A stretch of 64,000 bases of DNA from Auanema rhodensis (GCA_964057225.1 OZ059895.1:13392001-13456000), one strand, 5' to 3'. Counted from the stretch's first letter, positions 22,719-43,551 are shown. Notes: generated by a model from the letters alone, not told the origin. Numbers and translations are program-made.

Positions 22719-22837
22719 AGCTTACGGCACCCGGGATTCCCAAGCCGTCTCCGATCCAAGTACTAACCGGGCCCAACGTTGCTTGACTTGCCAGATCGGA
22801 CGGGATGGCGTACTTTCAACGTGGTATGGTCGTAAGC
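22719..22837 (-). rRNA. 5S rRNA
   Basis: Array copy. Confidence 0.95.
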
Positions 22838-23247
22838 GAAAATACCTGATATTCAATGATTTACATACTTATCCTCGTTATTGTTTTTTTTCCAATTTCA
22901 TGTTAGTTATGTAATTTTCTACGTTACATCTAAATTCCTCGATGATATCAAATCTTATGAGCTCCAAATACAATAAATTAAAAAAGGTTTCACAGTTGTA
23001 TAGTGTTAAAACAATGTTTGTTTCAATAGGAAATAGATAGAAACAGTAAAGTTAAGATGAAGGTTCATAAACTACTGGTTTATAACTGTAATATAGAAAT
23101 AAGATTGAAGATATTTTGATGCCTTGGGTTGAGCTATCTAAGTAAAACTGCTAGAAAATTAAAAACATTTGTTACGGAAGAGATAAAATTGAAAATCAGC
23201 TGCATGGCGTACTTTCAACGTGGTATGATCGTTAAAAAAATTTGAAA

Positions 23248-23366
23248 AGCTTACGGCACCCGGGATTCCCAAGCCGTCTCCGATCCAAGTACTAACCGGG
23301 CCCAACGTTGCTTGACTTGCCAGATCGGACGGGATGGCGTACTTTCAACGTGGTATGGTCGTAAGC
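23248..23366 (-). rRNA. 5S rRNA
   Basis: Array copy. Confidence 0.95.
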
Positions 23367-23776
23367 GAAAATATCTGATATTCAATGATTTACATACTTA
23401 TCCTCGTTATTGTTTTTTTTCCAATTTCATGTTAGTTATGTAATTTTCTACGTTACATCTAAATTCCTCGATGATATCAAATCTTATGAGCTCCAAATAC
23501 AATAAATTAAAAAAGGTTTCACAGTTGTATAGTGTTAAAACAATGTTTGTTTCAATAGGAAATAGATAGAAACAGTAAAGTTAAGATGAAGGTTCATAAA
23601 CTACTGGTTTATAACTGTAATATAGAAATAAGATTGAAGATATTTTGATGCCTTGGGTTGAGCTATCTAAGTAAAACTGCTAGAAAATTAAAAACATTTG
23701 TTACGGAAGAGATAAAATTGAAAATCAGCTGCATTGCGTACTTTCAACGTGGTATGATCGTTAAAAAAAATTGAAA

Positions 23777-23895
23777 AGCTTACGGCACCCGGGATTCCCA
23801 AGCCGTCTCCGATCCAAGTACTAACCGGGCCCAACGTTGCTTGACTTGCCAGATCGGACGGGATGGCGTACTTTCAACGTGGTATGGTCGTAAGC
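23777..23895 (-). rRNA. 5S rRNA
   Basis: Array copy. Confidence 0.95.
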
Positions 23896-24305
23896 GAAAA
23901 TACCTGATATTCAATGATTTACATACTTATCCTCGTTATTGTTTTTTTTCCAATTTCATGTTAGTTATGTAATTTTCTACGTTACATCTAAATTCCTCGA
24001 TGATATCAAATCTTATGAGCTCCAAATACAATAAATTAAAAAAGGTTTCACAGTTGTATAGTGTTAAAACAATGTTTGTTTCAATAGGAAATAGATAGAA
24101 ACAGTAAAGTTAAGATGAAGGTTCATAAACTACTGGTTTATAACTGTAATATAGAAATAAGATTGAAGATATTTTGATGCCTTGGGTTGAGCTATCTAAG
24201 TAAAACTGCTAGAAAATTAAAAACATTTGTTACGGAAGAGATAAAATTGAAAATCAGCTGCATTGCGTACTTTCAACGTGGTATGATCGTTAAAAAAAAT
24301 TGAAA

Positions 24306-24424
24306 AGCTTACGGCACCCGGGATTCCCAAGCCGTCTCCGATCCAAGTACTAACCGGGCCCAACGTTGCTTGACTTGCCAGATCGGACAGGATGGCGTAC
24401 TTTCAATGTGGTATGGTCGTAAGC
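24306..24424 (-). rRNA. 5S rRNA
   Basis: Array copy (2 SNPs). Confidence 0.95.
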
Positions 24425-24835
24425 AAAAATATCTGATATTCAATGATTTACATACTTATCCTCGTTATTGTTTTTTTTTCCAATTTCATGTTAGTTATGT
24501 AATTTTCTACGTTACATCTAAATTCCTCGATGATATCAAATCTTATGAGCTCCAAATACAATAAATTAAAAAAGGTTTCACAGTTGTATAGTGTTAAAAC
24601 AATGTTTGTTTCAATAGGAAATAGATAGAAACAGTAAAGTTAAGATGAAGGTTCATAAACTACTGGTTTATAACTGTAATATAGAAATAAGATTGAAGAT
24701 ATTTTGATGCCTTGGGTTGAGCTATCTAAGTAAAACTGCTAGAAAATTAAAAACATTTGTTACGGAAGAGATAAAATTGAAAATCAGCTGCATTGCGTAC
24801 TTTCAACGTGGTATGATCGTTAAAAAAAATTGAAA

Positions 24836-24954
24836 AGCTTACGGCACCCGGGATTCCCAAGCCGTCTCCGATCCAAGTACTAACCGGGCCCAACGTTGCT
24901 TGACTTGCCAGATCGGACGGGATGGCGTACTTTCAACGTGGTATGGTCGTAAGC
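24836..24954 (-). rRNA. 5S rRNA
   Basis: Array copy. Confidence 0.95.
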
Positions 24955-25364
24955 GAAAATACCTGATATTCAATGATTTACATACTTATCCTCGTTATTG
25001 TTTTTTTTCCAATTTCATGTTAGTTATGTAATTTTCTACGTTACATCTAAATTCCTCGATGATATCAAATCTTATGAGCTCCAAATACAATAAATTAAAA
25101 AAGGTTTCACAGTTGTATAGTGTTAAAACAATGTTTGTTTCAATAGGAAATAGATAGAAACAGTAAAGTTAAGATGAAGGTTCATAAACTACTGGTTTAT
25201 AACTGTAATATAGAAATAAGATTGAAGATATTTTGATGCCTTGGGTTGAGCTATCTAAGTAAAACTGCTAGAAAATTAAAAACATTTGTTACGGAAGAGA
25301 TAAAATTGAAAATCAGCTGCATGGCGTACTTTCAACGTGGTATGATCGTTAAAAAAATTTGAAA

Positions 25365-25483
25365 AGCTTACGGCACCCGGGATTCCCAAGCCGTCTCCGA
25401 TCCAAGTACTAACCGGGCCCAACGTTGCTTGACTTGCCAGATCGGACGGGATGGCGTACTTTCAACGTGGTATGGTCGTAAGC
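25365..25483 (-). rRNA. 5S rRNA
   Basis: Array copy. Confidence 0.95.
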
Positions 25484-25893
25484 GAAAATATCTGATATTC
25501 AATGATTTACATACTTATCCTCGTTATTGTTTTTTTTCCAATTTCATGTTAGTTATGTAATTTTCTACGTTACATCTAAATTCCTCGATGATATCAAATC
25601 TTATGAGCTCCAAATACAATAAATTAAAAAAGGTTTCACAGTTGTATAGTGTTAAAACAATGTTTGTTTCAATAGGAAATAGATAGAAACAGTAAAGTTA
25701 AGATGAAGGTTCATAAACTACTGGTTTATAACTGTAATATAGAAATAAGATTGAAGATATTTTGATGCCTTGGGTTGAGCTATCTAAGTAAAACTGCTAG
25801 AAAATTAAAAACATTTGTTACGGAAGAGATAAAATTGAAAATCAGCTGCATTGCGTACTTTCAACGTGGTATGATCGTTAAAAAAAATTGAAA

Positions 25894-26012
25894 AGCTTAC
25901 GGCACCCGGGATTCCCAAGCCGTCTCCGATCCAAGTACTAACCGGGCCCAACGTTGCTTGACTTGCCAGATCGGACGGGATGGCGTACTTTCAACGTGGT
26001 ATGGTCGTAAGC
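25894..26012 (-). rRNA. 5S rRNA
   Basis: Array copy. Confidence 0.95.
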
Positions 26013-26422
26013 GAAAATACCTGATATTCAATGATTTACATACTTATCCTCGTTATTGTTTTTTTTCCAATTTCATGTTAGTTATGTAATTTTCTACGTT
26101 ACATCTAAATTCCTCGATGATATCAAATCTTATGAGCTCCAAATACAATAAATTAAAAAAGGTTTCACAGTTGTATAGTGTTAAAACAATGTTTGTTTCA
26201 ATAGGAAATAGATAGAAACAGTAAAGTTAAGATGAAGGTTCATAAACTACTGGTTTATAACTGTAATATAGAAATAAGATTGAAGATATTTTGATGCCTT
26301 GGGTTGAGCTATCTAAGTAAAACTGCTAGAAAATTAAAAACATTTGTTACGGAAGAGATAAAATTGAAAATCAGCTGCATTGCGTACTTTCAACGTGGTA
26401 TGATCGTTAAAAAAAATTGAAA

Positions 26423-26541
26423 AGCTTACGGCACCCGGGATTCCCAAGCCGTCTCCGATCCAAGTACTAACCGGGCCCAACGTTGCTTGACTTGCCAGAT
26501 CGGACGGGATGGCGTACTTTCAACGTGGTATGGTCGTAAGC
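26423..26541 (-). rRNA. 5S rRNA
   Basis: Array copy. Confidence 0.95.
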
Positions 26542-26951
26542 GAAAATACCTGATATTCAATGATTTACATACTTATCCTCGTTATTGTTTTTTTTCCAAT
26601 TTCATGTTAGTTATGTAATTTTCTACGTTACATCTAAATTCCTCGATGATATCAAATCTTATGAGCTCCAAATACAATAAATTAAAAAAGGTTTCACAGT
26701 TGTATAGTGTTAAAACAATGTTTGTTTCAATAGGAAATAGATAGAAACAGTAAAGTTAAGATGAAGGTTCATAAACTACTGGTTTATAACTGTAATATAG
26801 AAATAAGATTGAAGATATTTTGATGCCTTGGGTTGAGCTATCTAAGTAAAACTGCTAGAAAATTAAAAACATTTGTTACGGAAGAGATAAAATTGAAAAT
26901 CAGCTGCATTGCGTACTTTCAACGTGGTATGATCGTTAAAAAAAATTGAAA

Positions 26952-27070
26952 AGCTTACGGCACCCGGGATTCCCAAGCCGTCTCCGATCCAAGTACTAAC
27001 CGGGCCCAACGTTGCTTGACTTGCCAGATCGGACAGGATGGCGTACTTTCAACGTGGTATGGTCGTAAGC
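26952..27070 (-). rRNA. 5S rRNA (element A2 inserted 65-68 bp upstream)
   Basis: Array copy (1 SNP). Confidence 0.95.
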
Positions 27071-27138
27071 GAAAATACCTGATATTCAATGATTTACATA
27101 CTTATCCTCGTTATTGTTTTTTTTCCAATTTCATGTTA

Positions 27139-27477
27139 CGTTCCATATTGGTTCCTAGGGTTCCGGCTAGGTAACCATATGGACTTTAATAGTGTGAATG
27201 CCATTGTAAAAGTAACAGAGAGTAGAGAAAAAGAAGTTTATTCAGAATATGGAAATACAATTATAAAAGCAAAATACAATAATCAAATAAATGAAACTAC
27301 ATGTTATGAGAAAGCCAACCTAGTTGCTTTCTCAGGGGTTTATATAGCAAAATATTAATTACAAATATAATTGAATTTATACAAAAAGTAGTTCAGGTCT
27401 AGTTTCTTATTGAATTCTATTAACCAAAAGTCGGTTGACGTTGTCAACCGCCTTCTTTATAAGACACGTATGGAACA
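27139..27477 (-). repeat. Family A 3' LTR (A2)
   Basis: Direct repeat of 38517-38855. Confidence 0.95.
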
Positions 27478-27701
27478 TGCCTTATATTGAAAAAGTAGCT
27501 GACCTCAGCTATAAGAAATTAGACCTTTTAAAGAAAAGAAACAAAAGAGAAAAATATATATATAAATGAATTAGAATTAGAATACTAGAATAGGAATAAT
27601 AGTGTAATAGGAATAATATTAAAAAAAAATGAAAACAATATAAAAAGAAAAAGAAAAGAAAAGAAAAGAGAAGAAAACTATGAATTCACCTCGTGCAGCT
27701 G

Positions 27702-28337
27702 TTATCCTTCTTCCTCCTCGATTTGTCCCAGCTGGAAGTCGGTCGCGGGTTGCCGGTCGGCGACCGTCCATATGTGGAACAGGCTGACGTCTGTTAGCAG
27801 TTCCGTCGCCTGGCCTGCTATCATCATTTTCTTTCTTTTCTGGTCCGGAGTGGTGGCGCGCGTCGCCATTAGTATCCTTAAGGCCTGGCTGATCAGGTCT
27901 CCCGCCTTCCTAATCGACTGGTTGGTCGATTCCATCATACTTTCTTCTGTCCAGCTCTTGTGGATCTCTTCCGCGGCCCATCTTGGGATGAGATCCGCGC
28001 TAGCTACATTTTCGGAGGCTGGATAGCCTAGATCTTCGCGTAGTTTGTTGATGGTGGCCTTGGTGCGGGCAGTGGCCTCGGACCAGTTTTGCGCCATTTT
28101 TGCCATCTCTTCTTCATCATTGTTACATGAACATTGTAACCTTTCCAGAGTCTCTATTAATAGAGTAACTCTGGCTAAATTCTCCGAAAATGATTGGAGG
28201 ATTCTTATCTTTTTAGTCCTGTTGTTTGTTGTCTCCAGTTGTTGTAGTTCTATCTGGAGCGAATGTATCTTGATCCACTTTTCCTTGATCATCGCGATAG
28301 GTGTCTCGCAGGCTGGTGGAGGGAAGACGAGTGCCAT
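27702..28337 (-). CDS. Accessory ORF2 of family A (211 aa, predicted helical, unknown function)
   Basis: ATG-initiated, intact in A2 and A3 with only conservative substitutions, GC-richer than its AT-rich flanks. Confidence 0.75.
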   Translation of the reverse strand: MALVFPPPACETPIAMIKEKWIKIHSLQIELQQLETTNNRTKKIRILQSFSENLARVTLLIETLERLQCSCNNDEEEMAKMAQNWSEATARTKATINKLREDLGYPASENVASADLIPRWAAEEIHKSWTEESMMESTNQSIRKAGDLISQALRILMATRATTPDQKRKKMMIAGQATELLTDVSLFHIWTVADRQPATDFQLGQIEEEEG

Positions 28338-28549
28338 TCTTGTGGTGCTGGGAGTTTTTCTGCTTGAGGTGAATTTTGAGCTTATATAGGGTGAAAAAAA
28401 ATAGGTAAGTATATATTTTGTGATACATAGATATTAAGATTGATGATTGGGGAAAACATTGTTTTTGTTGTTTGGGTAGCAGATAGAATGAATTATTAAA
28501 AAAAAATTAATTAATAAAGTTATTTTCCCAAAAAAGTTTCTATTTTTGA

Positions 28550-31500
28550 TTAAATGGTTGTTGTTGCTCCAATCACTGTTGAAGGTCGTTTCTTTCGTAC
28601 AACCGGTGTTTTTGGAGAATTGAAATGAGCATCAGGTATCTGAGAGCGTGTGAGCCTGTTTTTAGACTCTAAGGTGGGTATCACGCTGTTGTACCTTATT
28701 GGTACGTGGAATGGTTTTGGAGCGGTTATAGGATTTTTGTCTTCTATTCCAAGTGCCAACTTGAGGGCTGAGCTCCATCTTTTGGTTGTGGGTATCTCTT
28801 TACGTCTTTCTTCATAGAGCTCTTGCCTTGTTTCTTCTCCAATTTTATCGACAAGTTGTTGAAATAAGTTGTTTTCGTCCTTGTCCGTAGCTGACTTGTC
28901 TGCCGTATTCGGTCCGGTTTCTGGTTGATAATTGTCCTGTTGTGTTTCCCGCGTAATTTCCTGTGGTGCTCTTGTTTCTTGTGGTGTTATTGAAGGTCGG
29001 CTTTGTTCGTAGAATTCGTCCTCGTTGTCGCTTTCTGAATCAGAGATTGATGTTGCGGTGGGCGTGCTATTTTTAGCGCGCGTATTTTCCGTATCCTGCT
29101 GTGAGCCGTCGCTATAAATGGCGGGTGCGGAGTCGTTTCTGTTGTGCTCGCTTTCTTCGACGTTGTTATCGTCGGGTGGAAAGTATCTTATATTATTCTT
29201 GTGAGCTATAATCGTATTCCCTTCGCTATCTGCTAATATTACGTTATTTCCTTTTATTTCCTTGATTATATATGGTCCATCGCTTGTTGTTTGTAATTTA
29301 TTTGCTGGCTTTGCTCGCTTGACGAGTGCTCTATTTTCCACGAAGATCTCTCTTTCCTGCGTCCTGTGATTTTCGTCGTATTTCTTCTTCATTCTTTCAT
29401 TATTCAACTCTATCCTTTCATGAATCTTCTCGTGTAAGTCCGGGGCGTTCTTGATTGTGGCTCCTGGAGTTTCTAAGTCCTTATCTATTGGTAACCGAGC
29501 TGTTTGTCCAAACAGACAGTCGTAGGGTGGTGTGCGAGTAGTAGCGTTTGGTAGTCGATTCATCGTAAAAACAATTTTTGGTAGAATAATATCCCAATTG
29601 TCTTGGTCGTCATTAACGTAGGAAGTTAATGCTTCTTCCAGTGTTCTGTGTAGCCGTTCCACTTGACCATTTGCGTTTTTGTAGTATGGCATAGTTGTGT
29701 GATGTTCCGATCCAAGATTATCGCACATGCTTTTGAATTCGTGTGAGACAAAGTTTGATCCATTGTCTGTGATGATTTTCTTTGGGGGTCCGAAGACATA
29801 GAATAAGTGTGTCATAATAGCTGATACTATTTCTTCTGATGTCTGACGAATTAATGGTATCGCTATAATCCATTTGGAAAATGCGTCCTGTATAGATAAA
29901 ATGTATCTATTATCCTTTGCAGTTCTAGGTAATGGTCCTAGTATGTCCATGTGAACTCGTTCCCATGGATGTGTCACTGTTGGGAAGTTTCTCATTGGTT
30001 CAACTGTGGCTTCATGTGGGTTATTTTTCCTCTTTGCACAGTCGAGACATCTGTTCACATATCTTGTGATATCATCCTGTATTCCTGTCCAAGTGTACCG
30101 TCGCAAAATGGAGTCTTGAGTCTTATTGATTCCAAGATGTGCTCCGAGAATTGGGTCTTTATGAAATTTTTCTATAATTGGTATTGTGATTGCTGGATCG
30201 TTTGGTAGAATGGCTCGCGGAGTTTGTAAAGCTGTTTTGGGTTTTGCATACAGAGCGTCGTTCACAACGATATATCGATCCATTAGTTGCCTTCCTGCTG
30301 TTTTGTTCCGAATCTTTTCTTTTGTTTCCATGATCCATTCTGTATTGCCTTGGATGGTCCGAAGGTCCGTAATAGTTGAAATAGTCGAGATTTTGTGTGT
30401 AGGAGTTTCTTTTGGTTTCTTCTTTCTTTCCTTGGCTTCGTTGACTTCGTCTTCAAAATATCGTGAAAGTGCATCACAGACGCTGTTAAGACGTCCTGGG
30501 CGATACACTATCTCGATGTCGTATTCTTGTAATACGATTTGAAATTTTGCTAGCCTGCCAATGAGATCTTTTCTTGTCATGAGGCTAGTAAGAGGCCTGT
30601 GATCGGTAATGATTCTTATTGGTGTGCCTAGTATGTAAGTCCGAAATTGATGTACTGCGAAAGTGAGTGCTAAGGCTTCGATTTCAATTGGCGGGTAATT
30701 CCGTTCGGCTTTGTTCAGTTTTCGGCTGGCAAATGCAATTGGGTGAAGTGGTTCCTTGTCGTCTTTAGCCTGTAATAGTACTGCGCCAACTGCAATTATA
30801 CTTCCATCGCTTTCAATGACGTAAGGTCGTTTTGCTATAGGTGCTTGTAGTACAGGAGCTTGACAGAGTATCTGTTTAAGTTGTTGAAATGCTTGTTCTT
30901 CTGCATCTCCCCATTTGAAAGCTGTATCCTTTTTCGTGAGCTCATAAAGTGGTGACGCAATGCCTGCGGCATTCCTAATAAATCTGCGAAAGTAGTTCAC
31001 AACTCCCATAAATGCTCGAACTCCTGTTATTGATTTTGGTCTTGGATAATCTTGGATTGCTTTTACTTTCTGAGGGTCTGGTTTTATTCCTTCGTGTCCA
31101 ACAATGAATCCTAGGAATTTGACTTCTTGTTGTCCAAAGGTACATTTCTTAAGCTTGATTTTCAATCCTAGCTCTGCTGATGCGTTCAGTACTTCGTCGA
31201 TATCTTGTAAATGTTTCGTCGTTGATTCCGATATGAGAAGTAGATCGTCGAGATAGACGAAGAGCTTGCATCGTACGTGTTGTTGTAAATATCGTACAGC
31301 ATTTTGGAATGTGTGTGGAGCTCCGCAGAGTCCCATCGGCATTCTGCAGTATTGATAAGTTCCGCTCGTAGTAGTGAATGCGGTGAGGTGTCTATCTTCT
31401 GATCTAAGAGGGATTTGAAAGAATCCAGATACTAGATCAAAGTTACTGAAGATACGCGCTCCGGCTGCTAGGTCCAAGATGTCTTGAATGTTAGATATAA

Positions 31501-34500
31501 CGTAGATTTGTTTTTGCGTTATTGCGTTGAGTGCTCGAAAATCAGTCACAAATCTGTACGTTTTATCCTTTTTCTTGACCAATATTACGGGACTGGTAGT
31601 CATAGAAAAAGATGGCTCAATTATTCCTTGTTCTAACATTTCCTCCACTTGTTTTTCTACTTCTTCTTGTTGTGATAGAGGTATTCTGTACGTGATCTTG
31701 AAAGATGGAACTTTTCCTTCGATGATCGGGATGCTATGTTCCACTGGTCCTTTGAAAAGTCCAATATTGCGATCCTCGTTTAAGAAAGCTTCCTTGTTTC
31801 TGAGCACTATTTTCTTTAACTGTTGTCTCTCTAGCTGAGTAAAGATGGTGTTTGTTACATCGAGGTCTTTTATAAAGTCCTGTGGGAAGTATGGTAGTTG
31901 ATCTTCCCATCTTGCTTCTGGTGGCACATATTGTCCTTTTTGCTCCTCCGTGTTTTTCGGGATAGCGTAAGCTGTTCCAATGCCTTGATTTGTCTGTACT
32001 ACAATTGTGTCTGGAGAGATATTTGTAGCAAATATCTGAACTCCATATCCCGTTGGGGTGAAAGTAGTAGGGGCGAAACTCATTTTTCCTGTCCGCTGTG
32101 AGCTTCTAATGAAAGCTTGTTCGTAAGAGGCGGGATCGTCTACTTCCAATGTAAGCGATCTGGTTTCTCCTGGGTAGAACTGTTTAGTTTCCAGGCTTAC
32201 GACGTGTGCTATCGTGTGGTTCTCAGTCCATGGCGCGTAGTCTTGTGCTAAAGGTACTATTGTGTCTCCAATTAGTAGTGAATTTTGTAGTGGTCGTAAA
32301 GATGTATTTATTCCTATTTTGTTGAGAGCTTCTATGAAGTCTATTCCTAATAATATTGGTGCTGGGCAGTGGTTGTTGGCAGAAATCAGTACTTTGTGCT
32401 CGATTTCTGTCTTCCCGATAATAATTGGGATTCTTGTGTAGCCCAGGAAAGAAAATCGTGATTTGTTTGCTACAATGGCTGTTGTCTTTTCCATAACCAT
32501 TGTTGCTGCCGGTAGTTGTTGAAATGTACTTTCCTTCATGTATGATATAGAAGCTCCTGTGTCCCATAAAGCAGTAAAGATCTGATTGTGAATGGAGAGA
32601 GGTACGAAAGGTAGTCGTGATCCTCCGATGTAGTTAATCCTTGATTCTTTCATAGCGTACCGTGGTAGATAGGCGAAAAAGTCATTATCTGATAGTGGGG
32701 CGTCAGGATCATATCGAGAGGTTCTTGTATATAATTTCTCTTGCTGAGAAGTGACTAGTGGTTTTAATTCGAATTGTTTGTCCTCTCCTCTTGGTTCTTC
32801 GTCTTGTTCGTTGAATGTGATTTGATTGATTGGTATCCTTGTGGTACATGCATATATTTTTAATGCCCAAATGGTAACAGTTATGAGTCCTATTGTGACG
32901 ATGATTGCTCCAATAATAGCTAGTGTCCTTAGTATCCATGCTGTAATTGATTCTCCTATGTATCCAAAGAAATTTGTGATTTGTTTCTCCGCGTTGTTTG
33001 ATATGTTATCTGCTATCATTAATGTCGTTCCAACTGTTCCTCCTATAATTCCTATTGGATTCAGATTGGATAGTCCAGAATGTTTGAAGACTGGTTTCAA
33101 TTTTCCTGGCATAGTTGCTTGTAAAGATGCTAGGCTAGAGCCGTAGGAAATAGCCAGTGCCATTGGAAATGTTGACTCCGTGAGGTTTGAAAATATGTTG
33201 GAATTGTTAAACTTAATGTGATCAATTTTTACAGATGTGAGTTCATCTGAAAATGAGAAGTTAGTCACATTCAATGTTGAATTATCTTTCATCCATTGAT
33301 TGTTTTCTCTGTAGGGATCTGATGTAGCCATATCGCATGCTATGATGTGGGCAAATGGTGTTAAATCTCTTGATCCTGGTGTGATGAAGAGTTTTCCGTG
33401 ATGTTCCGTGTCTACCGGTGTCTCCAGGTAACATTTATCGTCTCGTTTGTGATCCGAGTATACACGTGTTACTTGTACAGGGGTGCATGGCATGACGTAA
33501 ATAAGATGTTCTCCAACAAACTTTGCTGAAATATCCTGTCGACGAAGCATAGTGCGAATTCCTATAGTCGGATTAATCTGCAGGATTGCCCACCAGGTAA
33601 GTAGCTGCTTATTTTGCATTCTGCATACGTTTTTCTTTGTTATTTGGAAAGATTGTAAGATTTCCTCCTCTAGTTTTGACGTAGAGTATTGGAGGTGGGA
33701 CCTTGTATCTTGTTGGCGTAGTTGATCGTCGTATTTTTGAATGATATCTGCTCGTGTTCGTAGGAAATTGAGGTGTGCTTGTGATCCAGTGTGAGATTTG
33801 ATTTCCTCAATCGGTTGGGTCGTTGTTGCTCGCTTTGTAGTAGTCCGAGTTGTTGGAAGTGTCCTAGTAGATTCCCTGCGGGATGTGGTGGTGAGAGGAC
33901 GTGGTGGTGGAGTTACTGGAGTTGTTGTACTCTGGTAATAATAATATCTCCTTGGTGTAGTTGTAGGTTGAGGTGGAGACGTCCGATGAGTAGTAGTTGT
34001 CGGGGCAGTTGTTGTGGTAGTCGATGTAGTGGTTGTGGTGGTTGTAGTAGTGGTGGTTGTGGGGGTAGCACCAGGTGACTCAATGAGCTGAAGATATGCT
34101 TGTTGAAATAATTTGCTGTCTTCATCCGTGATAGGTCTGATTGTAGGTTGATTTTTGGGCAACCCATAATTTTGTGCGTGTCCGTTGAAGATGAGGGTAT
34201 AGTTGGGAAAGACGATTGCTGACGAATTTGCCTGTTTTGTGAGATCTGCCCATTTCTTATTTTCTGTCTCTCTTTGTTCTTTTGATATCCGAGTTAGACG
34301 ATTGTTTTGCTCTAGATAATTAAGAAACTCCTGTATTTGATCCATCTGGGTGTAGAACTGTGTGTCAGTGCGTGATCTAGGCAGTTTTGTCATCCTGGGT
34401 GGGTACAGTTGGTACAGATAGTCCTCCATTGATGGAATAGTCTCTCCTGTTGCCAGAGTGGTAGGTGTGTGAGCTATTTCAATTGCTATTTGTCTTGCTC

Positions 34501-37390
34501 GGTCGAGATAATCGCCTTCGTAGTTGAGTAGACGTGTGGCAAAGTCGCTGATAGTGATTTGCTTGCTGAGTTTTGCCGTGATCTCTGATGGCAGTAGGTG
34601 TTCGATGGCAATTTCCGTAGAAAGTCGAATCTCAGCTTCTGCAAGTGTGTGCAGGATAACCATGTTGATGTCAGTGTAGTTGTGCCATAAGAGTCGGTTC
34701 TTCAGTTTTGATGAATCTAGTTGTAGGAATTTGATGAAACCTATGTGTACGCTAGATGTCTTGAGATATTCCATAAGGTTATAAGCGTTGTCTAGTCTTT
34801 TCCTATTTCGATATGTCTGGTACATAGGTAGTATACCTGTAGAACTGTCTGTGAGGCGAAGTGATTTGTAGATAGTGATATTGAAGAATCTCGTAGGGTA
34901 TTCTTGGGGTGCCATCCTCTTTTGACGTCGGTGTGTTTTTAAGTCCTTGATGGAAATGTACGTACCACTATCAGTTGAGTAGATGCTTGTATTCATACAT
35001 CTTGTAGCTGTAGGGTCTGGCGTGTTGTTTTTGAGAATGAATGCTCCTTGTATTTCCGAGATTAATACAGTATCATTGTTGATTAGTGCTTCGAATTTCC
35101 CTAATGTCGTGTAGTCGCAATTTCGATGATCATTGGGTGGGATCCATGTGATAACTGCGTTGGTGGTGTTGCATACTCCTTGTTGCTTAGTACATCCTTC
35201 AGTGTTGATGAATAAGTCGGAGATTATAGTGTCATCGTGTAGGCTAGTCATCATTCCTCTTTCTAAGGTGAATCTTGACTTGGTTGTGCAAGAGGATGCC
35301 CAAAACGATTTTGATTGTGTACTAGATGGCATAGGGGCTTTGAATAGTCCTGGTGCTTCGCGATTGAGGTCGTTATCCATGTGTCGTCTTTCTTGAATGG
35401 CTGTTTGGCATTCTTGTGGAGTGGCTGGTTCTATTCGGAGTAATGTAACGTTATTTTCCCTGATGAAGAATAAGTCGTGGGCGCACGTTTTATAGATTTC
35501 CTTGGCGCATTTCCATGCTTCCCATTCCTTGTAATTCATATTTTCTGCGAATAGTTCCACTGTTTTTATCTCGACTCCGTCCTTGTGTGCATAGTCTGAG
35601 CAGGTGGTTGGGCGAGGTGGTTCGAGGAAAATACCTCCTCGTTTGCCAATGCAGAGTTGATAGGTGTTGTCTGCCTGGCAAGGTATCATAGATAGGGCGA
35701 TGACGGATAAGAATAGCGGTATGAACGGAAGTGTCTTCTTTGTTTTGATTGTTTCCTTTTCTACTTTGTTAACGTGAAAACGGACGCTGGGGCTTCTTGT
35801 GCGATCTCTGTGCCTGTTATGTGGTCCATATGAAGTGCTGCGATTTCGTTGTTGAAATCCGCGATCAGGACAGTTTCCGCGGTTGTATCGGTCGTTTCCT
35901 CTGTGCTCCTGTCGATCATTCCTTCTGCTATCATATCGATCGTTTCCTCTGCTGTTGTATCGATCATTGTATCTATCGTACCGTTGGGGGCTACGATAAT
36001 TGTTGTATCCTTGTTGATATCCATTGTTTCTGTTATCCTGTCTGAAGTTGTGACGGTTATTTTGTCGATCCTCTTGGTATCTTGGTGAGCGGTATCCTCC
36101 TCTTCTTTGATTCCATTGCTCTTGTGGTTGTTGTGGTCTTGATTGATTTCCATAGAATGTTCTTGATTGGTGTGTTTGTGATCCGTCATAGATTTTCTCC
36201 TGTTGTGATGCTCTCATGTGGTTTATGAGACCATTATTAATCTCTAGTTGTTCCACGTCTTTAATCAAGTTGTTGACCAAGAGCGAAGGATCCTCGTCAG
36301 CTTCCACAGTTTCGGCAATAGTCACGGCTGCATCAAAGGTGATAGGGCTGCGGTTATTGACATGTGTTCTTAAAGTCTTTCGTAGTCCTCCTAAGAATGA
36401 AACTCGTAGTATTCTTTCGTCGGCTGTCGAGTCCATGTTGCATGATTCGTAGGCAAGGTTTCTGCAGCGTTGAGCGAAATTTTGTACCGTTTCGTGCTCT
36501 CCTTGTTTCAAATGAGTGAGTTTTGTGAATGCTGCATCTCTCTTTTCTGGAGGTTGTAGTTTCTCCGATAGTATGCGTTTGACGTGGTTCCATCCCTGGC
36601 GTAAGTCTTCTGCTGGTATAGTTCGAAGAGCTTCAGCGGCTCTATCCGTTCCGAGAAGTAGATAGAGATGGGAAAGTCTCTCGGCAATAGGGACTTGAAG
36701 GGCATCGAAATATCCTTCTAGTCTTTGCATGTAGAGGTTGAATGGAACCGATCCATCATAAAGCGTAGGTTTGTGATGGCGAATAGAAACGTTGTGGGCT
36801 CTTGCAATAGGAGAGTTGTCTTGCTCCATCTGCTCTGCCATTTGAGGGCGACTTCTCTGCTCTGTAACATTCGAAGTCAAATTTACGTTATTGTCTGACG
36901 AAGAAGAGACAGGAGACAGAGAGTGCCCGTGCAAAGATTGATCAGTGGAAGAGGGAGAGTTTCTAGGAATAGGAGAGGTGAGGATTTCCGCATTTGCGGT
37001 TTGAACAAGGCGTTGAGGAGAAGTGTGATTTGGAGGACAAGTGTTAGTGCCGGTATTAACAACTGTTTTTGGAGAGTGAGAAGAGCGTTTGGGCGTAGAT
37101 TTACTGGATGATGTTTTATTCTTATTCAAGCTAATTGCATGCCTAGTAGTTTTAATAGCAGTAGTATAAAGTTTCTTAGCAGTTAGCGGTGTACCCGGAA
37201 TAGGGGGTAATTTCTTTGATTTCGCGTTCGTTTTCGGATATTTCGCATCTGGTCGGAATGCATCCGGTGGTCCTCTTTTTCTTTGGTTTCTATGCAGTGC
37301 TGCTTCCATTGTCTGAGTTTTCTCTGCGCTATTCGTAGCATTTTGGGCAATATTTCCCGGCGGAGGGTTTTGATTCGCTGCGTCAGCCAT
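28550..37390 (-). CDS. Gag-Env(gB-like)-PR-RT-RNaseH-IN polyprotein (2946 aa)
   Basis: Gag (YDGS, LKQGEHETVQNFA, FLGGL); signal peptide ~35672-35734; furin RRQKR 34916-34930; Thr-rich stalk; TM 32861-32923; LWDTGA; YLDD 31244-31255; RNase H; HHCC/DDE integrase with GPY. Confidence 0.96.
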   Translation of the reverse strand: MADAANQNPPPGNIAQNATNSAEKTQTMEAALHRNQRKRGPPDAFRPDAKYPKTNAKSKKLPPIPGTPLTAKKLYTTAIKTTRHAISLNKNKTSSSKSTPKRSSHSPKTVVNTGTNTCPPNHTSPQRLVQTANAEILTSPIPRNSPSSTDQSLHGHSLSPVSSSSDNNVNLTSNVTEQRSRPQMAEQMEQDNSPIARAHNVSIRHHKPTLYDGSVPFNLYMQRLEGYFDALQVPIAERLSHLYLLLGTDRAAEALRTIPAEDLRQGWNHVKRILSEKLQPPEKRDAAFTKLTHLKQGEHETVQNFAQRCRNLAYESCNMDSTADERILRVSFLGGLRKTLRTHVNNRSPITFDAAVTIAETVEADEDPSLLVNNLIKDVEQLEINNGLINHMRASQQEKIYDGSQTHQSRTFYGNQSRPQQPQEQWNQRRGGYRSPRYQEDRQNNRHNFRQDNRNNGYQQGYNNYRSPQRYDRYNDRYNSRGNDRYDSRRNDRQEHRGNDRYNRGNCPDRGFQQRNRSTSYGPHNRHRDRTRSPSVRFHVNKVEKETIKTKKTLPFIPLFLSVIALSMIPCQADNTYQLCIGKRGGIFLEPPRPTTCSDYAHKDGVEIKTVELFAENMNYKEWEAWKCAKEIYKTCAHDLFFIRENNVTLLRIEPATPQECQTAIQERRHMDNDLNREAPGLFKAPMPSSTQSKSFWASSCTTKSRFTLERGMMTSLHDDTIISDLFINTEGCTKQQGVCNTTNAVITWIPPNDHRNCDYTTLGKFEALINNDTVLISEIQGAFILKNNTPDPTATRCMNTSIYSTDSGTYISIKDLKTHRRQKRMAPQEYPTRFFNITIYKSLRLTDSSTGILPMYQTYRNRKRLDNAYNLMEYLKTSSVHIGFIKFLQLDSSKLKNRLLWHNYTDINMVILHTLAEAEIRLSTEIAIEHLLPSEITAKLSKQITISDFATRLLNYEGDYLDRARQIAIEIAHTPTTLATGETIPSMEDYLYQLYPPRMTKLPRSRTDTQFYTQMDQIQEFLNYLEQNNRLTRISKEQRETENKKWADLTKQANSSAIVFPNYTLIFNGHAQNYGLPKNQPTIRPITDEDSKLFQQAYLQLIESPGATPTTTTTTTTTTTTSTTTTTAPTTTTHRTSPPQPTTTPRRYYYYQSTTTPVTPPPRPLTTTSRRESTRTLPTTRTTTKRATTTQPIEEIKSHTGSQAHLNFLRTRADIIQKYDDQLRQQDTRSHLQYSTSKLEEEILQSFQITKKNVCRMQNKQLLTWWAILQINPTIGIRTMLRRQDISAKFVGEHLIYVMPCTPVQVTRVYSDHKRDDKCYLETPVDTEHHGKLFITPGSRDLTPFAHIIACDMATSDPYRENNQWMKDNSTLNVTNFSFSDELTSVKIDHIKFNNSNIFSNLTESTFPMALAISYGSSLASLQATMPGKLKPVFKHSGLSNLNPIGIIGGTVGTTLMIADNISNNAEKQITNFFGYIGESITAWILRTLAIIGAIIVTIGLITVTIWALKIYACTTRIPINQITFNEQDEEPRGEDKQFELKPLVTSQQEKLYTRTSRYDPDAPLSDNDFFAYLPRYAMKESRINYIGGSRLPFVPLSIHNQIFTALWDTGASISYMKESTFQQLPAATMVMEKTTAIVANKSRFSFLGYTRIPIIIGKTEIEHKVLISANNHCPAPILLGIDFIEALNKIGINTSLRPLQNSLLIGDTIVPLAQDYAPWTENHTIAHVVSLETKQFYPGETRSLTLEVDDPASYEQAFIRSSQRTGKMSFAPTTFTPTGYGVQIFATNISPDTIVVQTNQGIGTAYAIPKNTEEQKGQYVPPEARWEDQLPYFPQDFIKDLDVTNTIFTQLERQQLKKIVLRNKEAFLNEDRNIGLFKGPVEHSIPIIEGKVPSFKITYRIPLSQQEEVEKQVEEMLEQGIIEPSFSMTTSPVILVKKKDKTYRFVTDFRALNAITQKQIYVISNIQDILDLAAGARIFSNFDLVSGFFQIPLRSEDRHLTAFTTTSGTYQYCRMPMGLCGAPHTFQNAVRYLQQHVRCKLFVYLDDLLLISESTTKHLQDIDEVLNASAELGLKIKLKKCTFGQQEVKFLGFIVGHEGIKPDPQKVKAIQDYPRPKSITGVRAFMGVVNYFRRFIRNAAGIASPLYELTKKDTAFKWGDAEEQAFQQLKQILCQAPVLQAPIAKRPYVIESDGSIIAVGAVLLQAKDDKEPLHPIAFASRKLNKAERNYPPIEIEALALTFAVHQFRTYILGTPIRIITDHRPLTSLMTRKDLIGRLAKFQIVLQEYDIEIVYRPGRLNSVCDALSRYFEDEVNEAKERKKKPKETPTHKISTISTITDLRTIQGNTEWIMETKEKIRNKTAGRQLMDRYIVVNDALYAKPKTALQTPRAILPNDPAITIPIIEKFHKDPILGAHLGINKTQDSILRRYTWTGIQDDITRYVNRCLDCAKRKNNPHEATVEPMRNFPTVTHPWERVHMDILGPLPRTAKDNRYILSIQDAFSKWIIAIPLIRQTSEEIVSAIMTHLFYVFGPPKKIITDNGSNFVSHEFKSMCDNLGSEHHTTMPYYKNANGQVERLHRTLEEALTSYVNDDQDNWDIILPKIVFTMNRLPNATTRTPPYDCLFGQTARLPIDKDLETPGATIKNAPDLHEKIHERIELNNERMKKKYDENHRTQEREIFVENRALVKRAKPANKLQTTSDGPYIIKEIKGNNVILADSEGNTIIAHKNNIRYFPPDDNNVEESEHNRNDSAPAIYSDGSQQDTENTRAKNSTPTATSISDSESDNEDEFYEQSRPSITPQETRAPQEITRETQQDNYQPETGPNTADKSATDKDENNLFQQLVDKIGEETRQELYEERRKEIPTTKRWSSALKLALGIEDKNPITAPKPFHVPIRYNSVIPTLESKNRLTRSQIPDAHFNSPKTPVVRKKRPSTVIGATTTI

Positions 37391-38495
37391 CTTTGTTGGT
37401 TTCCTGGAAGGAAATTATTAACCAACGAAGACTGAGCTTATATTATACAAAACGTAAGAGACAATATGGGGTTGGTATGCGCGACTCCTGTTCCTGTCAG
37501 GGGGCCAGCCTGCAGCGGGTCTCTAGTCGGAGAATAGCCTGGTCAGGTTCATACACGAGTCCGCAACTACGTGTGACCTTTAGCAAAGGACCAAGTTCTT
37601 ATCTCTCGAAGAGGCATGAGATATGAGACAGTGGTTTGTGTATTGCTCCTTTTCAGTCATGGACAAGATCAGGTACACAGGCTTCTCATACTCACTTTTC
37701 CAGACTTCTCTTACCTAAGCAAACCCCCAAAAGACGTTCCCTTTTAACGTTACTTCTGTTCCCCTGGGTCTTGCTAGGTGGGACCACTCAACTTCAAAAT
37801 ATTCTTTAATTCTCATATGGGACCAAAAAGGGTTAATTTCAAATGATTGCGCGTCTTATATCAAAAAGTGTACGCCTCCGCGCGATGTCCCGAGAATGTC
37901 TGGTATTGTTTCTTACGGGGCTTTCTCATAAAAATGCGTTAGATATCAAGAATAGTGGTTTTGTTTATGAATCAATGTTTTCAGAATGATTTATGAATAG
38001 ATTTTCAAAATTAGCTTGTGAAAAGAAGTTTTCAAGATGACTTATGGGTAAGTGTTGCAATATGAATAAATGTCTTTAAGATATTTCATGAATTGATAGT
38101 TTTTAATATTATTCGTGGTTAAATATTTTAATATGCTTGTTCCAAAAAGAGTTTTTATGCATTATATGCTTTTAACATACAGGAAAGTAGAGGAATAAAG
38201 TAGGAATATAGATTGTAATAGATAATATGTATAAGACATTTTTTTTCAAATAGATATATCAGAAATGATGTTAGAAGAATGATATTTAGAGATAAATTCG
38301 AATTACTAGATTAAATTGAAGTTTTTGTTTTAGATACAAAATTGACTTGAAAGTTTGAAATATAAAATTAAATTAGAATTTTGGATATGAAATCAAGATA
38401 AATTTTTAGAGTAAAAAGGATTTCAAAGAAAGAGAAAGTAATTTAAAGGTGAGAAAAGTAGCGGCAATGGTCCATAGAGATTCGTCCCTTATAGA

Positions 38496-38516
38496 CGAAT
38501 CTCGGTGGAACCTCCA
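38496..38516 (-). other. PBS (tRNA-Gln) of A2
   Basis: TGGAGGTTCCACCGAGATTCG adjacent to the 5' LTR. Confidence 0.88.
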
Positions 38517-38855
38517 CGTTCCATATTGGTTCCTAGGGTTCCGGCTAGGTAACCATATGGACTTTAATAGTGTGAATGCCATTGTAAAAGTAACAGAGAG
38601 TAGAGAAAAAGAAGTTTATTCAGAATATGGAAATACAATTATAAAAGCAAAATACAATAATCAAATAAATGAAACTACATGTTATGAGAAAGCCAACCTA
38701 GTTGCTTTCTCAGGGGTTTATATAGCAAAATATTAATTACAAATATAATTGAATTTATACAAAAAGTAGTTCAGGTCTAGTTTCTTATTGAATTCTATTA
38801 ACCAAAAGTCGGTTGACGTTGTCAACCGCCTTCTTTATAAGACACGTATGGAACA
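38517..38855 (-). repeat. Family A 5' LTR (A2)
   Basis: Direct repeat of 27139-27477. Confidence 0.95.
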
Positions 38856-39201
38856 GTTAGTTATGTAATTTTCTACGTTACATCTAAATTCCTCGATGAT
38901 ATCAAATCTTATGAGCACCAAATACAATAAATTAAAAAAGGTTTCACAGTTGTATAGTGTTAAAACAATGTTTGTTTCAATAGGAAATAGATAGAAACAG
39001 TAAAGTTAAGATGAAGGTTCATAAACTACTGGTTTATAACTGTAATATAGAAATAAGATTGAAGATATTTTGATGCCTTGGGTTGAGCTATCTAAGTAAA
39101 ACTGCTAGAAAATTAAAAACATTTGTTACGGAAGAGATAAAATTGAAAATCAGCTGCACGGCGTACTTTCAACGTGGTATGATCGTTAAAAAAATTTGAA
39201 A

Positions 39202-39320
39202 AGCTTACGGCACCCGGGATTCCCAAGCCGTCTCCGATCCAAGTACTAACCGGGCCCAACGTTGCTTGACTTGCCAGATCGGACGGGATGGCGTACTTTC
39301 AACGTGGTATGGTCGTAAGC
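39202..39320 (-). rRNA. 5S rRNA
   Basis: Array copy. Confidence 0.95.
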
Positions 39321-39729
39321 GAAAATATCTGATATTCAATGATTTACATACTTATCCTCGTTATTGTTTTTTTTCTAATTTCATGTTAGTTATGTAATTT
39401 TCTACGTTACATCTAAATTCCTCGATGATATCAAATCTTATGAGCTCCAAATACAATAAATTAAAAAGGTTTCACAGTTGTATAGTGTTAAAACAATGTT
39501 TGTTTCAATAGGAAATAGATAGAAACAGTAAAGTTAAGATGAAGGTTCATAAACTACTGGTTTATAACTGTAATATAGAAATAAGATTGAAGATATTTTG
39601 ATGCCTTGGGTTGAGCTATCTAAGTAAAACTGCTAGAAAATTAAAAACATTTGTTACGGAAGAGATAAAATTGAAAATCAGCTGCACGGCGTACTTTCAA
39701 CGTGGTATGATCGTTAAAAAAATTTGAAA

Positions 39730-39848
39730 AGCTTACGGCACCCGGGATTCCCAAGCCGTCTCCGATCCAAGTACTAACCGGGCCCAACGTTGCTTGACTT
39801 GCCAGATCGGACGGGATGGCGTACTTTCAACGTGGTATGGTCGTAAGC
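39730..39848 (-). rRNA. 5S rRNA
   Basis: Array copy. Confidence 0.95.
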
Positions 39849-40258
39849 GAAAATATCTGATATTCAATGATTTACATACTTATCCTCGTTATTGTTTTTT
39901 TTCCAATTTCATGTTAGTTATGTAATTTTCTACGTTACATCTAAATTCCTCGATGATATCAAATCTTATGAGCTCCAAATACAATAAATTAAAAAAGGTT
40001 TCACAGTTGTATAGTGTTAAAACAATGTTTGTTTCAATAGGAAATAGATAGAAACAGTAAAGTTAAGATGAAGGTTCATAAACTACTGGTTTATAACTGT
40101 AATATAGAAATAAGATTGAAGATATTTTGATGCCTTGGGTTGAGCTATCTAAGTAAAACTGCTAGAAAATTAAAAACATTTGTTACGGAAGAGATAAAAT
40201 TGAAAATCAGCTGCATTGCGTACTTTCAACGTGGTATGATCGTTAAAAAAAATTGAAA

Positions 40259-40377
40259 AGCTTACGGCACCCGGGATTCCCAAGCCGTCTCCGATCCAAG
40301 TACTAACCGGGCCCAACGTTGCTTGACTTGCCAGATCGGACGGGATGGCGTACTTTCAACGTGGTATGGTCGTAAGC
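40259..40377 (-). rRNA. 5S rRNA
   Basis: Array copy. Confidence 0.95.
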
Positions 40378-40787
40378 GAAAATACCTGATATTCAATGAT
40401 TTACATACTTATCCTCGTTATTGTTTTTTTTCCAATTTCATGTTAGTTATGTAATTTTCTACGTTACATCTAAATTCCTCGATGATATCAAATCTTATGA
40501 GCTCCAAATACAATAAATTAAAAAAGGTTTCACAGTTGTATAGTGTTAAAACAATGTTTGTTTCAATAGGAAATAGATAGAAACAGTAAAGTTAAGATGA
40601 AGGTTCATAAACTACTGGTTTATAACTGTAATATAGAAATAAGATTGAAGATATTTTGATGCCTTGGGTTGAGCTATCTGAGTAAAACTGCTAGAAAATT
40701 AAAAACATTTGTTACGGAAGAGATAAAATTGAAAATCAGCTGCATTGCGTACTTTCAACGTGGTATGATCGTTAAAAAAAATTGAAA

Positions 40788-40906
40788 AGCTTACGGCACC
40801 CGGGATTCCCAAGCCGTCTCCGATCCAAGTACTAACCGGGCCCAACGTTGCTTGACTTGCCAGATCGGACGGGATGGCGTACTTTCAACGTGGTATGGTC
40901 GTAAGC
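40788..40906 (-). rRNA. 5S rRNA
   Basis: Array copy. Confidence 0.95.
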
Positions 40907-41316
40907 GAAAATACCTGATATTCAATGATTTACATACTTATCCTCGTTATTGTTTTTTTTCCAATTTCATGTTAGTTATGTAATTTTCTACGTTACATCT
41001 AAATTCCTCGATGATATCAAATCTTATGAGCTCCAAATACAATAAATTAAAAAAGGTTTCACAGTTGTATAGTGTTAAAACAATGTTTGTTTCAATAGGA
41101 AATAGATAGAAACAGTAAAGTTAAGATGAAGGTTCATAAACTACTGGTTTATAACTGTAATATAGAAATAAGATTGAAGATATTTTGATGCCTCGGGTTG
41201 AGCTATCTAAGTAAAACTGCTAGAAAATTAAAAACATTTGTTACGGAAGAGATAAAATTGAAAATCAGCTGCATTGCGTACTTTCAACGTGGTATGATCG
41301 TTAAAAAAAATTGAAA

Positions 41317-41435
41317 AGCTTACGGCACCCGGGATTCCCAAGCCGTCTCCGATCCAAGTACTAACCGGGCCCAACGTTGCTTGACTTGCCAGATCGGACA
41401 GGATGGCGTACTTTCAACGTGGTATGGTCGTAAGC
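41317..41435 (-). rRNA. 5S rRNA
   Basis: Array copy (1 SNP). Confidence 0.95.
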
Positions 41436-41845
41436 GAAAATACCTGATATTCAATGATTTACATACTTATCCTCGTTATTGTTTTTTTTCCAATTTCATG
41501 TTAGTTATGTAATTTTCTACGTTACATCTAAATTCCTCGATGATATCAAATCTTATGAGCACCAAATACAATAAATTAAAAAAGGTTTCACAGTTGTATA
41601 GTGTTAAAACAATGTTTGTTTCAATAGGAAATAGATAGAAACAGTAAAGTTAAGATGAAGGTTCATAAACTACTGGTTTATAACTGTAATATAGAAATAA
41701 GATTGAAGATATTTTGATGCCTTGGGTTGAGCTATCTAAGTAAAACTGCTAGAAAATTAAAAACATTTGTTACGGAAGAGATAAAATTGAAAATCAGCTG
41801 CACGGCGTACTTTCAACGTGGTATGATCGTTAAAAAAATTTGAAA

Positions 41846-41964
41846 AGCTTACGGCACCCGGGATTCCCAAGCCGTCTCCGATCCAAGTACTAACCGGGCC
41901 CAACGTTGCTTGACTTGCCAGATCGGACGGGATGGCGTACTTTCAACGTGGTATGGTCGTAAGC
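41846..41964 (-). rRNA. 5S rRNA
   Basis: Array copy. Confidence 0.95.
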
Positions 41965-42374
41965 GAAAATATCTGATATTCAATGATTTACATACTTATC
42001 CTCGTTATTGTTTTTTTTCTAATTTCATGTTAGTTATGTAATTTTCTACGTTACATCTAAATTCCTCGATGATATCAAATCTTATGAGCACCAAATACAA
42101 TAAATTAAAAAAGGTTTCACAGTTGTATAGTGTTAAAACAATGTTTGTTTCAATAGGAAATAGATAGAAACAGTAAAGTTAAGATGAAGGTTCATAAACT
42201 AATGGTTTATAACTGTAATATAGAAATAAGATTGAAGATATTTTGATGCCTTGGGTTGAGCTATCTAAGTAAAACTGCTAGAAAATTAAAAACATTTGTT
42301 ACGGAAGAGATAAAATTGAAAATCAGCTGCACGGCGTACTTTCAACGTGGTATGATCGTTAAAAAAATTTGAAA

Positions 42375-42493
42375 AGCTTACGGCACCCGGGATTCCCAAG
42401 CCGTCTCCGATCCAAGTACTAACCGGGCCCAACGTTGCTTGACTTGCCAGATCGGACGGGATGGCGTACTTTCAACGTGGTATGGTCGTAAGC
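42375..42493 (-). rRNA. 5S rRNA
   Basis: Array copy. Confidence 0.95.
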
Positions 42494-42903
42494 GAAAATA
42501 TCTGATATTCAATGATTTACATACTTATCCTCGTTATTGTTTTTTTTCTAATTTCATGTTAGTTATGTAATTTTCTACGTTACATCTAAATTCCTCGATG
42601 ATATCAAATCTTATGAGCTCCAAATACAATAAATTAAAAAAGGTTTCACAGTTGTATAGTTTTAAAACAATGTTTGTTTCAATAGGAAATAGATAGAAAC
42701 AGTAAAGTTAAGATGAAGGTTCATAAACTACTGGTTTATAACTGTAATATAGAAATAAGATTGAAGATATTTTGATGCCTTGGGTTGAGCTATCTAAGTA
42801 AAACTGCTAGAAAATTAAAAACATTTGTTACGGAAGAGAGAAAATTGAAAATCAGCTGCACGGCGTACTTTCAACGTGGTATGATCGTTAAAAAAATTTG
42901 AAA

Positions 42904-43022
42904 AGCTTACGGCACCCGGGATTCCCAAGCCGTCTCCGATCCAAGTACTAACCGGGCCCAACGTTGCTTGACTTGCCAGATCGGACGGGATGGCGTACTT
43001 TCAACGTGGTATGGTCGTAAGC
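42904..43022 (-). rRNA. 5S rRNA
   Basis: Array copy. Confidence 0.95.
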
Positions 43023-43432: not shown

Positions 43433-43551
43433 AGCTTACGGCACCCGGGATTCCCAAGCCGTCTCCGATCCAAGTACTAACCGGGCCCAACGTTGCTTGA
43501 CTTGCCAGATCGGACGGGATGGCGTACTTTCAACGTGGTATGGTCGTAAGC
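43433..43551 (-). rRNA. 5S rRNA
   Basis: Array copy. Confidence 0.95.

Follow-up and report, generated by a model that had tools for sequence, protein, structure and literature searches.

How could a retroelement that carries its envelope protein (Env) between Gag and Pol, within a single uninterrupted chain, release three proteins that belong on different sides of a membrane? The question is raised by a 64-kb window of the Auanema rhodensis genome, the whole stretch of DNA that we analysed and the one to which all insertion-site counts below refer. The window holds a tandem array of 5S ribosomal DNA (rDNA) with a 529-bp unit and 40 5S genes (Rfam matches), broken up by long terminal repeat (LTR) elements of two families, A and B. 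An earlier note on this DNA had pointed out the Gag-Env-Pol frame in both families and implied that it was new; however, the GAG-ENV-POL order has already been catalogued for nematode Ty3/gypsy elements, according to the available text of Chary & Hayashi (eLife 2026, PMC13524379). Most probably, A and B are recently inserted Ty3/gypsy LTR retroelements, likely of the nematode GAG-ENV-POL errantivirus type (nematode endogenous retroviruses, NERVs), and their polyprotein is predicted to be cleaved by proteases of the host together with that of the element. The gene order is published; what is added here is a putative processing motif flanking Env and the clustering of insertions at 5S genes. As young, intact-looking elements, A and B offer a concrete and testable processing map for the GAG-ENV-POL class.

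Coordinates are collected in Table 1. The frame of element A1 (28550-37390) was translated without a stop into 2946 amino acids (aa), as the earlier note had it. Pfam matches appeared in the order Retrotrans_gag (aa 248-337), Glycoprotein_B (1231-1311), aspartyl protease (PR; 1597-1687), reverse transcriptase (RT; 1938-2097), RNase H (RH; 2160-2290) and then H2C2 and rve integrase (IN; 2404-2570). The Glycoprotein_B match (E 2e-6) lay under the curated cut-off of Pfam. Using a simple window score of hydrophobicity (not SignalP or DeepTMHMM), we found just two peaks in A, at 553-571 and 1489-1507, one at each end of the middle region. Pfam and hydrophobicity together confirmed for both families the order Gag, hydrophobic segment, ectodomain, transmembrane helix, tail and PR-RT-RH-IN, and the junctions CQA/DNTYQLC and AEA/YQLC are present in the translations. 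By shuffling, a stop-free frame of the length of Env is expected by chance with a probability of ~5e-24 in A and ~3e-28 in B. Gag of A has four scattered cysteines. No significant Pfam match was obtained for the A 3' open reading frame (ORF), the helical insert of Env or the N-terminal extensions, and an Atlas search gave no usable match for the 3' ORF and the insert.

Table 1. Positions of the 5S array, the LTR elements and the parts of the A1 frame in the window (5S-relative positions are counted from the gene start; TSD, target-site duplication; PBS, primer-binding site)
Feature	Position	Strand	Remarks
A1 single ORF Gag-Env-PR-RT-RH-IN	28550..37390	-	2946 aa; translated without a stop
A Gag, aa 1-552	35735..37390	-	S/T/P/K-rich disordered N terminus, capsid core, Arg/Asn/Gln-rich basic region, no CCHC knuckle
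A predicted internal signal segment, aa 553-576	35663..35734	-	signal-peptidase-like end; [VI]N-x-hydrophobic motif at aa 540 just upstream
A Env ectodomain, aa 577-1489	32924..35662	-	predicted gB-like class III fusogen
A predicted transmembrane helix, aa 1490-1510	32861..32923	-	from hydrophobicity
A predicted cytosolic tail, aa 1511-1590	32621..32860	-	two [VI]N-x-hydrophobic motifs, aa 1521 and 1585
A Pol	29231..32620	-	PR (DTG 1610), RT (YLDD 2046), RNase H, integrase (HHCC, rve, GPY 2705)
Element A1, complete LTR retroelement	27139..38855	-	11,717 bp; 4-bp TSD at -68..-65 of the next 5S gene
A1 5' LTR	38517..38855	-	339 bp; tRNA-Gln-type PBS directly after
A1 3' LTR	27139..27477	-	0 mismatches to 5' LTR; short purine-rich tract just before
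Element A2	51550..63288	+	98.7% identity to A1; TSD at -69..-66
Element A0, truncated by window edge	1..6581	-	99.2% identity to A1; 5' junction at -54
Lone family-A LTR	49300..49638	-	3' flank -58, 5' flank +141 on opposite strand; no TSD
Element B, complete	6887..18959	-	LTRs 6887-7252 and 18594-18959, 366 bp, 0 mismatches; TSD +172..+175 of 5S unit
5S rDNA array hosting the elements	18960..51549		529-bp repeats; array starts again at 63289

The Pol order PR-RT-RH-IN, the LTRs, a tRNA PBS, a purine tract, a short TSD and a GPY motif are those of Ty3/gypsy elements (Metaviridae). The closest PDB sequence match of the alignment profile was Ty3 Gag-Pol (E 7.5e-210), and Ty3 RT was also among the best. 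The same PBS 12-mer, of tRNA-Gln type, is present in A and B. The two LTRs had no mismatches in any of the three complete copies, and family-A copies share ~99% identity, which indicates that the insertions are recent. In A2, Env is intact and the frame is shifted by a deletion close to aa 2620, in the C-terminal part of the integrase; in A0 the Gag-Env-PR frame is open.

The B frame runs from stop to stop over 7953-16742 (- strand). It had been reported as an ORF at 7953-16661; the frame is indeed open, and 16661 is a GTG codon. The first ATG, at 15662, is codon 361 and would give 2569 aa. It is preceded by 360 stop-free codons (15663-16742, - strand; P ~4e-9) that are S/T/K-rich like the N terminus of A. 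Translation of B may begin at a non-AUG codon, such as the GTG at 16661, or in an upstream exon. Pfam domains followed the order seen in A (Gag, a gB/Monjiviricetes-type fusion protein, PR, RT, RH and IN), and the Monjiviricetes_fusion match at 1368-1509 (E 6e-15) was over the cut-off. B has the two hydrophobic peaks of A and three weaker ones.

To place the elements, we searched proteins with the region from the Env C terminus to RH, which yielded 113 long relatives. Seventeen matched Env of A, in every case ahead of PR/RT, and 15 of these came from nematodes (Caenorhabditis, Diploscapter, Oesophagostomum, Acrobeloides and Auanema). Gag, Env and RT were found by Pfam in that order within one protein in 7 of 18 proteins scanned. 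An RT-RH tree was built solely from the search relatives plus A and B (110 rows; P0035, P0039, P0045, P0105 and P0115, 5 of 115, were left out for short RT coverage). A and B were sisters (Shimodaira-Hasegawa-like approximate likelihood ratio test, SH-aLRT, 99) with 71% RT identity, and lay within a nematode clade of 16 rows (SH-aLRT 100), all with Env before Pol and 14 of them database rows, every one from a nematode. The other two Env-bearing relatives fell outside this clade. As A and B are each other's closest relatives in this tree, their layout was inherited once, and independent origins were rejected. Read from these sequences, the Env-before-Pol layout is a single inherited character that is widespread among nematodes. 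In metagenomes, a scan detected 28 loci with an RT identity of only 26-39%, and no relatives were found in the viral contigs scanned. An assembly artefact or a chance fusion was ruled out, since the three copies of A agree with B and with many relatives. One relative of 2738 aa, P0053, has a GDSL-like domain ahead of PR and a rhabdovirus-G-like Env past IN, that is, a Pol-Env order in one frame.

What kind of protein is the embedded Env? A single-sequence fold was uninformative (predicted local distance difference test, pLDDT, 36); the model used here is an AlphaFold model from an 18-row alignment (mean pLDDT 66; predicted template-modelling score, pTM, 0.37). In this model, beta-hairpins of great length are combined with a central helix of 69 residues and a crown rich in beta-strands, the features of a class III fusogen with its beta-hairpin fusion domain. 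Foldseek ranked herpesvirus gB first among PDB entries (E 1e-10) and rhabdo-like and nyamivirus G proteins first among viral models (E 2e-18). VIA-align against prefusion gB gave a Z of 13.4 and a root-mean-square deviation of 5.4-6.5 A over ~360 residues. Env is thus predicted by the model to be a class III fusogen of gB type and not a retroviral or alphavirus-type protein, an identity that goes beyond the earlier note. Along the chain of A, the ectodomain comprises the fusion domain, a furin-like RQKR at 822, a helical insert of ~250 aa, a Thr-rich mucin-like stretch, the long central helix and the crown. The complete insert (34079-34834, - strand), a predicted domain that follows the furin-like site, is confined to A, B and the Auanema protein P0035; because of it, the ectodomain of A and B measures ~900 aa versus 530-780 in most relatives.

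The earlier description of the ectodomain as Cys-rich was overstated (1.5% Cys in A versus 0.7-0.8% in the rest of the chain). Nevertheless, all 14 cysteines of the A ectodomain are also Cys in B, at ~30% identity. N-glycosylation sequons, likewise put forward earlier, are denser in the ectodomain than in Pol (1.54 versus 0.63 per 100 aa) but equal to the level of the Asn-rich Gag (1.45), and sequon density was therefore dropped as evidence for Env; 3 of 14 sequon positions in A are common to B. A comparison of the Env codons of A1 and A2 gave 16 synonymous and 8 non-synonymous differences.

Env may have been kept for an intracellular role, such as budding into the endoplasmic reticulum (ER) or endosomes or short-range transfer from soma to germline, instead of infection between animals. 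This explanation, to which we give somewhat less than an even chance, is compatible with the processing scheme proposed below. Published clades follow host taxa, which in the accessible part of the source is read as long-term vertical inheritance (PMC13524379), and the ectodomain of A and B carries the large helical insert and the mucin-like stretch. The predicted fusion-domain fold, its hydrophobic hairpin tips, which appear to be kept in the model, and the furin-like site are retained; these would be needed in either role, and sequence does not separate the two.

The topology of the chain was examined in 13 proteins with both Env ends; 6 of the 17 Env-bearing relatives (P0005, P0006, P0012, P0013, P0015 and P0021) were left out of this and the motif count, as the border at the N-terminal end of Env was missing or chimeric in them. 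A hydrophobic segment preceded the ectodomain in all 13. Lys and Arg were more frequent after the transmembrane helix than before it in 10 and equally frequent in 3, and a furin-like site was present in 10. A motif, [VI]N-x-[VILF], occurred just ahead of the signal in 9/13 and within 45 aa past the transmembrane helix in 8/13. Ectodomains held 16 matches per 9,387 residues and the RT core 3 per 4,289. Among 15 clade members, the motif was found at the RH/IN junction in 7 and in the stretch before PR in 8, compared with 1 of 32 RH/IN junctions of other elements. In A and B a further occurrence directly follows the capsid core, at aa 372 and 553. By its position, the [VI]N-x-hydrophobic motif is likely a viral protease site that would free Gag and Pol. 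The predicted topology, with Gag cytosolic, Env luminal and Pol cytosolic behind the transmembrane helix, fits both the A and B sequences and the relatives.

These observations suggest the following pathway. Translation of the genomic RNA would first make Gag in the cytosol. The internal hydrophobic segment would then act as a signal, behind which signal peptidase would cut, sending the ectodomain into the ER lumen; there the 14 conserved cysteines would pair, and the furin-like site would be cut later. Transfer would be halted by the transmembrane helix, leaving the tail and Pol cytosolic and anchored to Env. Capsids would assemble at that membrane, and Env trimers would bring the protease domains together, upon which the viral protease would cut the [VI]N-x-hydrophobic sites between Gag and the signal stub, between the Env tail and Pol, and between Pol domains. 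Signal peptidase and furin of the host would thus work on the luminal face of the ER membrane, and the viral protease on the cytosolic face. The tethering of Pol to the Env tail, as earlier proposed, is then probably transient, since most relatives have a likely protease site in the tail, and the 1:1:1 stoichiometry proposed with it would apply only at synthesis and only if spliced forms are not made. In alphaviruses and flaviviruses, too, a cytosolic capsid, an internal signal and a translocated glycoprotein are joined in one chain, followed in flaviviruses by the enzymes. The likeness is one of topology only; the fusogens of these viruses are class II and unrelated, and their polymerases are RNA-dependent RNA polymerases.

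After priming of reverse transcription by tRNA-Gln, the integrase of family A would likely prefer sites ~55-70 bp upstream of 5S genes. Four of the five family-A junction sites in the window were 54-69 bp upstream of a 5S gene, and all four were on the 5S strand. By simulation, four sites in 16 of 410 spacer bases gave a P of 2.5e-4 (~1e-3 by arithmetic when the fifth site is included). The TSDs of A1 and A2 differ (TAAC versus CTAA), so that these are separate insertions. On balance, we favour the view that, in this one window, family A targets the upstream flank of 5S genes in a manner typical of elements at RNA polymerase III (Pol III) genes. The alternative, which retains a sizeable minority share of our belief, is that the clustering comes from an AT-rich hotspot, survival bias or array recombination that re-copied one insertion, with no active targeting. 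The window was not a random choice, the sites come in pairs only 1 bp apart, and other parts of the spacer hold B and one of the family-A junctions; the two TSDs, the P value and the common strand of the four sites argue against it. More tentatively, family A might combine a safe haven upstream of 5S genes with a protease of its own that opens the chain on both cytosolic sides of Env, trimerisation of Env triggering maturation.

Family A can be likened to yeast Ty3, which is also a Ty3/gypsy element and inserts upstream of Pol III genes, within a narrow interval, as described in the available text of PMC8632968; such placement is proven for Ty3 and only suggested for A. Unlike A and B, Ty3 has no Env. 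Ty3 insertions lie no more than a few bases from the start site, versus 55-70 bp upstream for family A. Our literature search retrieved no published case of such 5S targeting or of the processing code for these elements. The consulted portion of a review describes Ty3/gypsy pieces in fish 5S spacers and mentions no nematode LTR element at 5S genes, and the available text of a paper on the C. elegans 5S cluster mentions no LTR insertion there (PMC8961926). True targeting would mean that the Ty3-style Pol III safe haven is also used by an animal element with an envelope. It would further account for an under-counting of such elements in short-read assemblies that collapse 5S arrays.

Several points weigh against our interpretation. 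Translocation, glycosylation and cleavage are all predicted from sequence alone. The motif was defined after inspection and the proteins are related, which inflates the motif statistics, and the tail of B does not contain the motif. The database relatives are gene models in which exons may have been joined, and at least two are chimeric (P0013 and P0015). The pTM of the Env model is 0.37, and its global template-modelling scores are low (0.17-0.24), partly because ~350 residues, the helical insert and the Thr-rich stretch, lack a counterpart. The fifth family-A junction, at +141 on the opposite strand, and B, at +172..+175, are outside the upstream window. Finally, a second hydrophobic, proline-punctuated stretch before PR is unexplained by a model with one transmembrane helix.

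This second stretch was present in 11 of the 17 proteins checked. In B it lies directly ahead of the protease (11637-11693, - strand) and has a small-residue end site; it is also seen in 10 relatives and is degenerate in A. As a weak extra signal or a membrane hairpin, it could divert or anchor part of Pol and so lower the ratio of Pol to Gag without a frameshift. We consider this unlikely: the stretch is degenerate in A despite multiple young copies of that family and absent from one subclade, and its two prolines probably disfavour a full transmembrane helix. Frameshift-dependent expression was rejected, since a continuous frame makes it unnecessary; slippery-like heptamers do occur, at scattered positions.

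The single frame could also be mostly a precursor from which splicing yields a Gag-Pol RNA that lacks Env or a message for Env by itself, the full polyprotein being minor and the ratios set by splicing. A precedent is Cer1 of C. elegans, which in the accessible text has no stop between gag and pol, an extra 3' ORF and, despite the stop-free gag-pol, spliced mRNAs (PMC10309623), and in B the open codons before the first ATG, together with a strong acceptor-like site in the leader, hint at splicing or a non-AUG start; yet we hold this to be improbable, as the 120 codons ahead of the signal lack a consensus splice donor in both A and B, the tail of A has no acceptor and that of B one weak candidate, and the frame is continuous over both Env borders in A, B and apparently many relatives, which would be needless if Env were always spliced apart. 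Three sets of contigs guessed to be RNA gave 10 pieces, all short and with no joints. Cer1 resembles A as a nematode Ty3/gypsy element with a stop-free gag-pol and an extra 3' ORF, insofar as its available description goes. It differs from A and B in having no Env, and its 3' ORF belongs to the spliced RNA-export protein CERV.

The reading of A and B as NERV-type elements agrees with what the available text of Chary & Hayashi gives for errantiviruses of nematodes, bryozoans and flatworms: GAG-ENV-POL order, only gB-type Env, and ectodomains bounded by a signal and a transmembrane helix or by two transmembrane helices (PMC13524379). A and B match these elements in gene order, the predicted gB type of Env, Ty3/gypsy Pol and a signal/transmembrane-bounded ectodomain, as far as that text describes them. 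The PBS 12-mer of A and B is identical with the one listed there as tRNA-Gln for Clat_errantivirus_4 and Ctro_errantivirus_1 (two of 30 nematode rows out of the 36 in the table), and tRNA-Gln PBSs are described as common in Caenorhabditis elements (PMC13524379). By eye, Env domain I of Clat_errantivirus_4 resembles that of A and B, with the same cysteine pattern, and, for the cysteine-bridge class (C1 or C2) of Env domains I-II, a likeness to the Nematoda_C1 rows is seen by eye. The same text credits Sacco et al. 2022 (J Gen Virol 103:001739) with the flipped ENV/POL order in NERVs and, in its available part, does not discuss a single polyprotein, frameshifting, processing or insertion preference (PMC13524379). 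An Env between Gag and Pol, its predicted gB type, an RT in the nematode Env-before-Pol clade and the tRNA-Gln PBS are all found in A and B. NERVs reportedly carry gag, env, pro and pol in one continuous ORF, together with additional small ORFs and an env like that of nyamiviruses; the single frame of A and B, the fold match to nyamivirus G and the 3' ORF of A would agree with this. NERVs are not known to target 5S genes.

Neither A nor B has env 3' of pol in a separate ORF, the arrangement of Retroviridae and insect errantiviruses. A closer parallel for the single chain is Atlas virus of the nematode Belpaoviridae, a polyprotein of 2,828 aa with Gag, Pol and Env between identical LTRs, according to the available text (bioRxiv 10.64898/2026.03.22.711591). 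It shares with A and B the single chain and the identical LTRs. Unlike them, it is described there as a BEL/Pao element with three CCHC knuckles in Gag and with Env last and phlebovirus-like (class II). The C-terminal phlebovirus-like Env and CCHC Gag of Belpaoviridae are found in neither A nor B.

Some further features of the array were noted. The lone family-A LTR sits exactly at the orientation flip of the 5S array; its flanks, which come from different sites and show no TSD, suggest an inversion mediated by LTRs or integrase. A single 5S spacer holds both A0 and B, with 305 bp between them (6582-6886). No SL1 or other Rfam family besides 5S was detected at threshold in the 529-bp unit by an Rfam scan. 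The LTR termini are TG..CG in A and CG..CG in B, versus the usual TG..CA (for example at 27139, 38855, 6887 and 18959), and A and B LTRs have in common only ~21 terminal bases, which continue into the PBS. Just past the terminator, at ~+135 to +165 (for example 18975-18995), each 529-bp unit holds a short degenerate copy of 5' sequence from the 5S gene.

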